Notes: generated from the letters alone by a model not told the origin. 64,000 nucleotides of DNA from Pseudomonadales bacterium (GCA_024234165.1 JACKOP010000001.1:213707-277706); one strand, 5' to 3'. Shown: positions 4,028 to 10,903, numbered from the stretch's first letter. Numbers and translations: made by a program.

Positions 4028-7000
4028 TCAGCCGTCCGTCATCAATTTCCCACTGTTGATCAGGTGCTCGATGATCTGCTGGTCACTGCCGATCGCGAGC
4101 AGACCGCTCGCATTCTGCAACTCGATCGTCTGGAACGGGACTCCCGCATCGTGCTCGGCATCACCGGTAAAGGCTCCGGTCGGGCTGATCCGTACCAGTG
4201 CACCACCATCTGCCGTCGCCTGGAAATGCAGATAGCCGGTGAGATTATCGTGATTCTCCGTCTGCAGCAGATCGCGCAGGTCGAGTATATCGCCACCTTC
4301 GATCGCCGGGCGCGTATCGAAATGAGCGATCGTGTCGTGAGCCCCGGGGTCGGCCAGCGACCATTTGAACACATCAGGACCTATGTCTCCCGCAAACACC
4401 GTGTTGCCTTCGAGGTCATAAAGCATGTTGCCCGCGCCGATGATGTTCACGACGAAGTCGGCACTCATCGACACGTCACCGTCGTTGTCCGTTCCCTGAA
4501 CCGCGAACTCGAGCGGAGTCTCCACGATACTGATCGGTGTTTCGACCGCGAATCCGATGAACTTCCAGGACGTGTGGTTGGCCGCACTGAGTTCAACGGT
4601 GTCGAAGAGTGTGTGCTGCTCGAGCCCGTTGCGTGACAGATCGATCCAGTATTCGGAGCTTTCGTCTCCAGTGATGTTCACCACAGACCCGTCGGAGCCA
4701 ACGTAGCTGCCGCTGATGGTTCCCGAATCGATCAGTGTTCCGGCATGGTAGACCTTCCATACCAGCACATCATTGGTGCTCAGATTGCCGACATTCAGTG
4801 AGCACCCGGTCAATGCGTCAGCAAAGCTCATCCTGAGGACTTCCGGCGACCCGGCTCCAAGGTCATCGATCAGGTTGTTGCCGATTCCAAGCCCGTCCGA
4901 CGAGGGATTCAGGCTTCGAGATCCGGCGCTGAATACCACGCTGGTAAGCGGATCTCCGACGCCTGCACCCGTGTGTGCGTCGTAGCTTTGATAAAGCGAA
5001 GTCTCCACAGACACTGAAGGTTTGCCCGGCACAAGTGCCAGATTCGCCAAGTCAGGCGACGACGCAACCACGTCGGCATACGCCTTGAACAGCGTGAACG
5101 TGTAGCTCCCGGCGGAGTCGAGCGATATCGTGAACAACACATCGCCCGTGACGTCAGTTGCCACCAGGGTACCGTCATCCTGCAGTGCGTAGCTCACTCC
5201 TTCAGGTGCCAGACCGAGACTGCCGGCCAGACTGAATCCGGCGAGTCCATCGGCGGAAACGGCTGTGATGTGACCGGTGACCGAGAGGCCCGGCGCATTG
5301 ACGATGACGGCATTTTCCACATCGAGGATCGCCGGTTCCGAATCGACGATCGTGACGTCGATCTGCGTGGCAGCCGACGCGGTCCCGTCGCTGACCGATA
5401 TGGGAATCGACTCGATGAATCCATCATCGGTTGCACCTGCCTGACTGTCGTTGTCGACCACCGAGTGCAGCGTGTACTCGTAACCGTACACCCCGTTTTC
5501 GTAGGAAGTGATGGTCAATTGGCCGTAATGCGTCGGGACACTCTGACCGACGAGCTCCTCCATTCCCGAGCCGACATCGAAGGCGATCCCAGCGATCGTG
5601 ATCGTCTCGATATCTTCGAGTCCGTCGAGATCACTGACCGTGATCGTTCCGGTCACCACGACCGACGCCGCACCTTCCTCGCGTCCACCTGGTAACCCGT
5701 CCTCGAATACCTGTTGCACCACTGGCGCAACCATGACCAGCGGTGGGTGATTGATCGGCGTAGTCGCAGTGGTCGGCGTAGTGGCTGTCGTCGCCGTAGT
5801 CGCCGTTGTCGGCGTAGTCGCTGTCGTTGCCGTCGTCGCTGTTGTGGCGGTTGTTGCGGTTGTCGCCGTGGTCGCGGTTGTCGGTGTCGTGGCCGTCGTA
5901 GCGGTTGTTGCCGTCGTCGGCGTGGTCGCGGTCGTAGCCGTGGTTGGCGTAGTCGCCGTGGTTGCGGTCGTCGCAGTTGTCGGTGTCGTGGCCGTCGTCG
6001 CGGTTGTCGGTGTCGTGGCCGTGGTTGCGGTCGTCGCCGTGGTCGCGGTTGTCGCGGTCGTGGCCGTCGTCGCGGTTGTCGGTGTCGTGGCCGTTGTTGC
6101 AGTTGTTGCAGTTGTTGCAGTTGTTGCAGTTGTTGCGGTTGTTGCGGTTGTCGCCGTGGTCGCCGTGGTCGCCGTCGTGGCGGTGGTCGGCGTAGTCGCG
6201 GTCGTTGCCGTCGTAGCCGTTGTCGGCGTAGTCGCTGTCGTAGCCGTAGTGGCTGTCGTCGCGGTGGTGGCCGTGGTCGCGGTGGTGGCCGTTGTCGCCG
6301 TGGTCGGCGTAGTCGCCGTCGTGGCGGTGGTCGCCGTCGTGGCGGTGGTCGCCGTCGTGGCGGTGGTCGCGGTCGTCGCCGTCGTCGGTGTCGTTGCGGT
6401 AGTTGCCGTCGTCGGTGTCGTTGCGGTCGTTGCCGTCGTCGGTGTCGTGGCTGTTGTTGCGGTTGTTGCGGTTGTCGCCGTGGTCGCGGTTGTCGGTGTC
6501 GTGGCCGTCGTAGCGGTTGTTGCCGTCGTCGGCGTGGTCGCGGTCGTAGCCGTGGTTGGCGTAGTCGCCGTGGTTGCGGTCGTCGCAGTTGTCGGTGTCG
6601 TGGCCGTCGTCGCGGTTGTCGGTGTCGTGGCCGTGGTTGCGGTCGTCGCCGTGGTCGCGGTTGTCGCCGTCGTAGCCGTGGTCGCCGTGGTGGCCGTTGT
6701 TGCGGTTGTTGCGGTTGTCGCCGTAGTCGGCGTCGTCGCAGTTGTCGCTGTCGTGGCCGTAGTCGCTGTTGTGGCCGTAGTCGCTGTTGTGGCCGTGGTC
6801 GCCGTTGTCGGTGTCGTGGCCGTCGTCGCAGTTGTCGGTGTCGTGGCCGTGGTTGCGGTCGTCGCCGTGGTCGCCGTGGTCGCCGTGGTTGCGGTTGTCG
6901 GCGTAGTCGCCGTCGTTGCGGTTGTCGCCGTTGTCGCGGTCGTGGCCGTCGTCGCCGTGGTTGCGGTCGTCGCCGTGGTCGGCGTAGTCGCTGTCGTAGC

Positions 7001-10903: not shown

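Follow-up and report, generated by a model that had tools for sequence, protein, structure and literature searches.

Lap cargos and an unusual relative in Pseudomonadales

In the known Lap cargos, tens of folded immunoglobulin (Ig)-like domains hold the functional end of the protein away from the cell. The Lap-type RTX adhesins, among them P. fluorescens LapA, Marinomonas primoryensis MpIBP, V. cholerae FrhA/CraA, Bordetella BrtA and Aeromonas AhLap, share a plan in which an anchor, a long spacer and a distal functional region follow one another. Tandem Ig-like extenders have been called the "classic signature" of RTX adhesins in a 2025 paper (PMC12077191), and the mechanism of retention and LapG cleavage is established for LapA (10.1101/198937; PMC12077191). 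The present analysis concerns a 64,000-nucleotide stretch of DNA from a Pseudomonadales bacterium (GCA_024234165.1 JACKOP010000001.1:213707-277706; hereafter the window), in which a 2291-residue open reading frame (ORF) with an ATG start, at 4028..10903 on the minus strand, encodes a cargo of the same plan. Like the Lap-type adhesins, it combines a retention module of the MpIBP anchoring fold, a dialanine motif followed by a Gly-rich stretch and a C-terminal signal for a type I secretion system (T1SS), and its neighbours include lapG- and lapD-like genes together with genes for an LssB/LapB-type ATP-binding cassette (ABC) transporter, an HlyD adaptor and a TolC-like channel. Unlike them, it has a spacer of 519-579 Thr-Thr-Ala/Pro tripeptides in place of tandem Ig-like domains, lacks RTX nonapeptides and a beta-roll as well as any recognisable lectin, vWFA, peptide-binding or ice-binding domain, and is separated from the adaptor gene by a gene for a LuxR-type regulator. 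Judged from its sequence and surroundings, the protein is probably a Lap-regulated, type I-secreted surface protein carried on a TTA/TTP stalk that is either disordered or extended and may be modified.

The cargo protein and its tripeptide stalk

The cargo gene and its parts are as follows.

4028..10903, minus strand: cargo gene, with retention module, (TTA/TTP)519 stalk, beta-sandwich C-terminal region and T1SS signal (ORF and profile searches)
10427..10903, minus strand: retention module, residues 1-159 (NF033682 retention_LapA, 114 bits against a cut-off of 50)
10559..10570, minus strand: PAAG, putative LapG dialanine motif, residues 112-115, followed by the Gly-rich GLGGGESG (motif search)
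5756..10426, minus strand: stalk of 519 tripeptide units, 4671 nt (unit count, codon-position analysis, AlphaFold2 model)
4337..5755, minus strand: non-repeat region before the signal, predicted beta-sandwiches (AlphaFold2 pLDDT 72, generic Ig-like fold matches)
4043..4336, minus strand: type I secretion target domain (TIGR03661 T1SS_VCA0849, 48.6 bits against a cut-off of 17.6)

A preliminary description of this DNA had reported the same reading frame without stating its strand, as well as a span of residues 160-1716 made only of TTA and TTP with rare TTV and TTT. Both were recovered exactly: a script counted 519 consecutive Thr-Thr-X (TTX) tripeptides (416 TTA, 97 TTP, 5 TTV and 1 TTT) with zero interruptions, amounting to 68% of a protein whose computed composition is 48% Thr and 21% Ala, with a mass of about 221 kDa and a pI of about 4; as the stalk is devoid of Lys and Arg, trypsin would not cut it. 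The TTP units are irregularly spaced, at gaps of 1-16 units with no dominant period, and autocorrelation of the tract DNA revealed no preferred higher-order period. Throughout the 519 units, neither Thr codon of the 9-nt unit varies at its first or second position; in the third codon, a G/C switch yields Ala or Pro, five C-to-T changes yield Val and one first-position G-to-A change yields the lone TTT. All three wobble positions vary (1.55-1.82 bits), the tract holds 46 distinct 9-nt units, and matches between units at the DNA level reach only 75% according to Tandem Repeats Finder, with exact internal repeats of up to 248-275 bp. Because codon positions 1 and 2 are invariant while the wobble positions vary, the tract is under selection at the amino-acid level in the TTX frame. 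The composition of the repeat leaves several further frames open, including an Arg/Gly/Cys-rich one on the plus strand; TTX is the only frame connecting the two flanking modules.

The span is also free of Ig-like, cadherin-like and RTX repeats, as first described, in that it consists of TTX units only and is structureless in prediction: AlphaFold2 modelling of the first 141 stalk residues gave pLDDT values of 27-43 and no secondary structure. In the whole protein there are zero matches to the RTX nonapeptide patterns Dx[LI]x4GxDx[LI]xGGx3D or GGxGxDxUx, and no LPXTG motif.

The N-terminal 159 residues are identified as a retention module both by the profile score given above and by a sequence match to the cell surface anchoring domain of MpIBP (PDB 5ix9, E 1.5e-6), in which APAAG aligns on APAAG. 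An AlphaFold2 model of residues 1-300 contains a confident beta domain at residues 7-70, whose sole significant PDB match is again 5ix9 (TM 0.87, rmsd 2.6 Å). The PAAG at residues 112-115, likewise reported at the outset, is the single match in the cargo protein to [T/A/P]AA[G/V], the published definition of the LapG motif (10.1101/198937), and APAAG is invariant in an alignment with 5-6 other retention modules.

At the other end, the 575-residue C-terminal region (4031..5755) is strongly acidic, with 80 Asp and Glu against 13 Lys and Arg. The TIGR03661 match spans residues 474-571 of this piece, in agreement with the VC_A0849-type signal proposed previously, and the 470-480 or so residues ahead of it are modelled as several beta-sandwich domains (pLDDT 72) whose structural neighbours are generic Ig-like folds at low TM. 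Two further labels given to this region did not hold. The VCBS-like assignment is dropped, as a Pfam search of both flanks returned no family at E<=1, VCBS included, and the T1SS-143-like one rests at 34 bits for T1SS_rpt_143, below the cut-off of 66. A PDB sequence search with the region found nothing. It is nevertheless conserved in 9 homologues, with many invariant positions at about 50% identity, and is presumed to be the functional or ligand-binding end of the protein; the label of adhesin is inferred by analogy with other Lap cargos. A separate feature of the family is an extra domain of about 135 residues (PF19116, DUF5801) in the C-terminal region of the approximately 50% orthologues P0003, P0004, P0005, P0007, P0009 and P0010, which is absent from the window protein, the 73% orthologue and P0006/P0008.

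The surrounding Lap and type I secretion genes

The genes on both sides of the cargo are listed below.

3..800, minus strand: TolC/LapE-like outer-membrane factor, N-terminal portion, the gene being cut by the window start (PF02321 OEP, 70.5 bits)
797..1654, plus strand: LapG-like periplasmic cysteine protease, Peptidase_C93 (Pfam 55.8 against 27; NF045674 225 bits against 320)
1690..3639, plus strand: LapD-like cyclic di-GMP receptor with complete LapD_MoxY_N, GGDEF and EAL architecture (NF045673 478 bits against 1020)
3646..3975, minus strand: 109-residue conserved ORF directly downstream of the cargo (conservation in 5 loci)
11078..11692, minus strand: LuxR/GerE-type regulator directly upstream of the cargo, with a 178-nt gap (profile search)
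11689..13101, minus strand: HlyD-family T1SS periplasmic adaptor (TIGR01843, 378 bits)
13098..15263, minus strand: T1SS ABC permease/ATPase of the LssB subfamily (TIGR03375, 938 bits against a cut-off of 693)

By these profile matches, all parts of a Lap system are present at the locus, and the LapA-type architecture first proposed for it is upheld by profile searches, fold comparison and gene context alike. Both the LapG-like and the LapD-like protein exceed the Pfam thresholds, with no domain of the architecture missing; the lapG/lapD linkage recurs in four related loci (L001, L003, L004 and L061), and a full OEP gene stands at the equivalent place in L001, L003 and L061. The small ORF downstream of the cargo has counterparts of 107-113 residues in L001, L003, L004, L061 and L062 (56-75% identity), which makes it about as conserved as the cargo C-terminal region in the same loci (50-73%); it has no Pfam or NCBIfam family, and a signal peptide is not obvious by eye. 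Of the features by which Lap cargos are defined, the protein thus has most; two customary ones are absent, namely RTX repeats and an extender of Ig-like domains. The published algorithm for LapA-like proteins (10.1101/198937) requires RTX motifs, and the cargo fails it.

Gene integrity and copy number

An exact look-up of the 2291-residue protein in a protein collection returned nothing on record, and the same locus in other assemblies was reached through an exact-sequence look-up of the neighbouring ABC transporter. Two contigs from different JGI samples, L006 (Ga0558121_00005, 2.95 Mb) and L010 (23.9 kb), contain an in-frame, uninterrupted stalk of 579 units in a protein of 2471 residues and are base-for-base identical to each other over 7.4 kb. 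In the flanks, the window shows 0 nucleotide differences from both; within the repeat it differs from them by indels only, always of whole 9-nt units. A single-indel model for 519 versus 579 units was rejected, since the difference comprises a block of about 61 units and, in addition, an indel of one unit. The preliminary description had named a collapsed or frameshifted repeat as the finding that would overturn its view, and here two independent contigs are in frame with identical flanks. Its count of 519 units is correct for the window; it is not a fixed property of the gene, which has 579 units in two other assemblies. The tract is variable in length, and the window shows a single allele of it or a single solution by the assembler.

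Assemblies from short reads end inside the repeat, as in L002 (100% identity), L005 (94%), L001 (73%) and L009, and the TTA/TTP repeats of the 100%, 94% and 73% identical copies each reach the contig end. A scan of genome contigs added a single further metagenome-assembled genome (MAG), at 94% identity and likewise broken within the repeat. Long contigs can be noisy in this region, L007 having 32 gap openings and L008 diverging.

It is against this background that an origin of the tract in assembly, or in a decaying pseudogene, has to be considered, according to which the repeat was created or distorted by the assembler or the gene is no longer expressed. Exact internal repeats of 248-275 bp, the regular breakage of short-read assemblies inside the repeat, conflicts between assemblies (519 versus 579 units, the gap openings of L007, the divergence of L008) and the many frame switches in the (EPTP)n stalk of the related locus L061 are all of the kind that such an origin would produce. 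It would have to accommodate, however, two independent contigs from different samples that are identical over 7.4 kb and in frame, a window that departs from them by whole 9-nt units with zero flank substitutions, third-codon-position variation over 519 units that resembles neither assembly noise nor neutral decay, a repeat that links the retention module and the T1SS signal in a single frame, and a 73% orthologue that keeps TTA/TTP with other codons. An artefact is therefore hardly credible, and these comparisons indicate that the gene is real, intact and in frame.

Gene callers have treated the region differently. On L006 (14774-20053, minus strand) and L010 (8288-13567, minus strand), a spurious Arg/Gly/Cys-rich ORF of 1759 residues is annotated opposite the stalk, equivalent to window positions 5714..10762 on the plus strand. 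On the same contigs, a separate 568-residue C-terminal fragment is annotated and the true 2471-residue gene is uncalled. The wrong-strand calls therefore leave the protein missing from databases; with short-read breaks added to wrong gene calls, proteins with such stalks, which form a small family, are nearly invisible there.

Relatives and the diversity of their stalks

The C-terminal region matches only 15 proteins in 5.8 billion clusters, each a fragment beginning directly behind a repeat. Cargo, small ORF and LapD gene occur together at their loci, and LapG and the OEP gene join them where the contig extends far enough on that side. The source organisms are uncultured Pseudomonadales. Stalks could be read in four orthologues.

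L001, 73% orthologue: TTA/TTP, using different codons from those of the window
L003, about 50% orthologue: (APTP)n
L004, about 50% orthologue: (PTS)n flanking a scaffold gap on either side, directly between retention module and C-terminal region
L061, about 56% orthologue: (EPTP)n of about 1000 residues, with frame hops in the assembly

The MAG with the 73% orthologue was obtained from a bioreactor for nitrogen removal from wastewater, with a biofilm or granule community (PMC9202391), a habitat in which attachment and granule formation matter.

A metagenome scan with the retention-module alignment yielded 50 loci, 48 of which continue into sequence of ordinary complexity; the remaining two have (DT)n (L011) and (TVP)n (L014), both running to the contig end. 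With the N-terminus as query, a word-index homologue search returned 6 short fragments and an exhaustive search 1405 retention-module clusters. Short low-complexity linkers follow the module in 9 of the 149 nearest representatives of these clusters; they are 37-110 residues long, rich in Pro, Thr, Glu and Asp, and built of repeats such as PEP, PPTTE and DEDPG. Low-complexity spacers behind the plug are therefore a recurrent theme. The idea that such sequence can form the extender has to be divided accordingly: short linkers of this kind are not rare (9/149), and the distinctive part, a low-complexity stalk that makes up the whole extender, stands as rare and so far undescribed. The claim of novelty is also in line with the literature on Lap and RTX adhesins and on Thr-rich or disordered stalks, in which no Lap cargo with a Thr/Ala/Pro stalk was found.

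Two loci deviate at the LapG motif. In L061 (6718-7000), the retention module appears to enter (EPTP)n after about 90 residues in a frameshift-rich assembly, and no PAAG/HGFVRVLRIVE segment is recognisable in any frame of this interval; in L063 (581-982, minus strand), PPAGAG stands in place of the motif, and the dialanine is absent. Control by LapG may differ in these two loci, or their assemblies may be wrong.

Putative modifying enzymes between the regulator gene and the cargo

The gene order adaptor, LuxR regulator, cargo is common to 42 of the loci compared. In the 36 with ordinary extenders, the gap between the LuxR gene and the cargo is below about 330 nt (one estimate being a small overlap), too short for an inserted gene. 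Among the six loci with low-complexity stalks, four have a gap of 2.0-2.8 kb that contains a putative protein-modifying enzyme, against 0/36 of the others.

L061:4073-6623, (EPTP)n stalk: 2-oxoglutarate (2OG)-Fe(II) oxygenase and a PF11397 N-acetylglucosamine (GlcNAc)-transferase/methyltransferase fusion (282 bits)
L063:1375-2946, (SPTPTE)n stalk: PF11397 GlcNAc-transferase
L014:4522-6777, (TVP)n stalk: sulfotransferase-TPR protein
L004:1278-3722, (PTS)n stalk: 814-residue APH (kinase-fold) protein
Window, TTA/TTP stalk: slot empty, 178-nt gap
L011, (DT)n stalk: slot empty, 229-nt gap
Window 21627..24080, minus strand, outside the slot: 817-residue protein with a C-terminal APH (kinase-fold) domain (29% full-length homologue in L004)

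The association between slot enzyme and stalk type gives p 1.3e-4 by Fisher's exact test for loci that are not phylogenetically independent; L063 was found via its transferase, so that its inclusion is biased, and without it p is about 9e-4 (hand calculation). PF11397, a family built around Gnt1, presumably corresponds to CAZy GT60. Skp1 Gnt1 acts in the cytoplasm after the prolyl hydroxylase PhyA (PMC6939170), and Gnt1 is placed in GT60 with protist enzymes that initiate mucin-type O-GlcNAc glycosylation (PMC8724618). As T1SS substrates exit directly from the cytoplasm, a cytoplasmic modification system is what would be expected, and the enzymes in the slot suggest that the equivalent stalk in several relatives is probably modified there before export.

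Fusions of a PF11397 GlcNAc-transferase with a methyltransferase occur widely among bacteria (1648 hits), with many members in Magnetococcales, Rhodocyclaceae and Magnetospirillum and some joined to a PF13640 2OG oxygenase; we know of no function or substrate assigned to these bacterial fusions. An attempt to link this family to the window's own genome failed.

For the window itself, modification of the stalk is possible but unsupported. No glycosyltransferase or other modifier was found among the window ORFs scanned, which reach to about 50 kb and include those at 30-50 kb, and tblastn with the GlcNAc-transferase and oxygenase of L061 gave no match in the 64-kb window or the other loci. The earlier suggestion of a glycosylation scaffold gains indirect support from the GlcNAc-transferases adjoining the cargo in the relatives L061 and L063; none adjoins it in the window. 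About 6 kb past the T1SS operon, however, lies the APH-fold gene listed above, whose product consists of an N-terminal region of about 490 residues and the APH domain and aligns over its full length (29%) with the slot protein of L004; it is tentatively regarded as an accessory of the cargo.

A broader idea, plausible although on the doubtful side, is that these loci, that of the window included, represent a hitherto unrecognised class, "type I-secreted bacterial mucins", retained by the Lap system, having a Thr/Pro-rich low-complexity stalk as their entire extender and modified in the cytoplasm by the slot enzyme. The window stalk would in that case be modified by an unlinked enzyme, for which the APH-fold protein at 21627-24080 is one candidate, and the T1SS would carry heavily modified, never-folding chains of more than 1500 residues without an RTX ratchet. 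The association of stalk and enzyme offers a testable route to T1SS-coupled protein glycosylation, sulfation or phosphorylation, of which no prior description was found.

Proposed mechanism and alternative explanations

By analogy with LapA, the cargo would be exported C-terminus first and unfolded through the LssB-type ABC transporter, the HlyD adaptor and the TolC-like channel, and would stall when the folded N-terminal beta plug cannot pass the channel, so that the protein stays threaded through the outer membrane with its PAAG segment exposed to the periplasm. At high cyclic di-GMP, LapD would restrain LapG; a fall in cyclic di-GMP would lead LapD to free LapG, which would cut at PAAG and release the protein. 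The tract of 1557 residues (1737 in the other allele) would take the place of the Ig-domain chain as a spacer, most likely as a hydrophilic, flexible to semi-rigid tether or brush resembling a polyproline II (PPII) helix, and would present the acidic beta-sandwich C-terminal region as the presumed binding end; the tract varies in length as repeat units are gained and lost. The contour length is estimated at about 480 nm if each residue of a PPII rod adds 0.31 nm, and the mean end-to-end distance of an unmodified random coil at a few tens of nanometres. Since the two estimates differ to this extent, the real reach is a matter of how far Pro, beta-branched Thr or modification stiffens the chain; the 0.4-0.5 micrometre stated in the preliminary description applies to a stiffened or fully extended chain and is far from the few tens of nanometres of the coil.

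Several observations weigh against this account of a Lap-controlled, stalked surface protein. The cargo has no recognisable ligand-binding domain, its flanks being without a Pfam match and its C-terminal model resembling generic Ig-like folds at low TM. Low AlphaFold2 confidence cannot separate disorder from a regular PPII rod. Without RTX nonapeptides, the usual pull by Ca2+-driven folding is missing along 1557 residues. Assemblies differ in repeat length and some are frameshifted, which leaves the exact structure of the stalk uncertain, and the LapG-like and LapD-like proteins score under the NCBIfam equivalog cut-offs.

The same anatomy may also be read as that of a mucin-like coat and not of an adhesin, namely a dense, hydrated, Thr-rich brush, possibly glycosylated, phosphorylated or sulfated, held by the Lap system and shed by LapG. 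Such a brush would alter surface hydration, charge and sterics, with roles in anti-fouling, in shielding against phages and grazers or in a granule or biofilm matrix, and the C-terminal region would serve mainly for secretion. The stalk does account for 68% of the cargo protein and diversifies in type between species yet stays rich in Thr and Pro, putative modifying enzymes stand beside the cargo in 4/6 low-complexity-stalk loci versus 0/36 others, no ligand-binding domain is identifiable, and the 73% orthologue comes from a bioreactor community of biofilms and granules (PMC9202391). We nevertheless regard a coat as unlikely, given that about 480 C-terminal residues outside the signal are well conserved, which points to a function beyond secretion, that no modifying enzyme adjoins the cargo in the window and that the known Lap cargos are adhesins.

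A regular fold of the stalk, either a PPII helix bundle or a beta-solenoid, would provide a rigid rod or a Thr-faced surface for binding ice, minerals or polysaccharides. A period of three residues would correspond to one PPII turn, so that Ala/Pro would line one face of the helix and Thr the remaining two. Fish antifreeze glycoproteins are (Ala-Ala-Thr)n with Pro substitutions, which the Ala-to-Pro exchange at the third position of the unit recalls, and MpIBP, the best-known relative, is an ice adhesin. The gaps of 1-16 between Pro units and the lack of a DNA period speak, however, against a solenoid of fixed coil length; AlphaFold2 predicts no structure; the PTS, APTP or EPTP units of orthologues would be tolerable in a spacer and not in a specific fold; and the sole documented source, that of the MAG with the 73% orthologue, is a wastewater bioreactor and not ice. 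A regular fold is thus very unlikely. The idea of a cold or icy habitat, suggested by the antifreeze analogy, found no support in that one documented source. A spacer is preferred to a specific fold because the stalk is structureless in AlphaFold2 models, its Pro units are irregular and orthologues swap the repeat unit freely.

Comparison with other stalked proteins and significance

The stalks of Gram-positive serine-rich repeat glycoproteins (SRRPs) receive O-GlcNAc in the cytoplasm, and a dedicated transporter then exports the proteins. These proteins (GspB, Fap1, SraP, Srr1/2) resemble the cargo in their very long low-complexity stalk of hydroxy amino acids, their folded binding region and their variation in repeat number, and the GlcNAc-transferase genes beside the cargo in L061 and L063 extend the parallel. 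Unlike the T1SS cargo with its TolC plug, SRRPs use the accessory Sec system and LPXTG/sortase anchoring, and their repeats are Ser-rich and dipeptide-based; the two share no homology, and no glycosyltransferase adjoins the window gene. Extended, hydrated tandem repeats rich in Thr, Pro and Ala are likewise found in eukaryotic mucin domains, in the stalks of fungal Als, Flo and Epa proteins and in protist mucins initiated by GT60 enzymes. In contrast to eukaryotic mucins, which are glycosylated in the Golgi, a T1SS cargo would have to be modified in the cytoplasm, as is the case for Skp1 (PMC6939170).

Closer in composition are the short Pro/Thr/Glu-rich linkers of other Lap cargos, which also directly follow the retention module, and the Pro/Thr linkers of bacterial glycoside hydrolases. 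The linkers of Lap cargos, however, occupy at most about 14% of the protein in complete examples and then give way to an ordinary extender, whereas the window tract is the whole extender, at 1557-1737 residues or 68-70% of the protein. Among T1SS substrates, Ehrlichia TRP32/47/120 are dominated by acidic, Ser/Thr-rich, disordered tandem repeats (PMC8112483); as released effectors without a retention module or LapD/LapG control, and much shorter, they differ from the window cargo.

These comparisons suggest that anchoring and release by the Lap system can do without folded Ig-like extenders and RTX repeats, which would widen the definition of a Lap cargo, and that search rules demanding RTX motifs or Ig repeats miss cargos with such stalks. 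They also raise the mechanistic question of how a chain of 1500-1700 residues, modified or not, is pulled through a T1SS without folding or Ca2+ binding.

Elsewhere in the window, a 719-residue ORF without a Pfam or NCBIfam match (40198..42357, minus strand) lies directly upstream of a co-directional gene for a TonB-dependent receptor (42360-44696).

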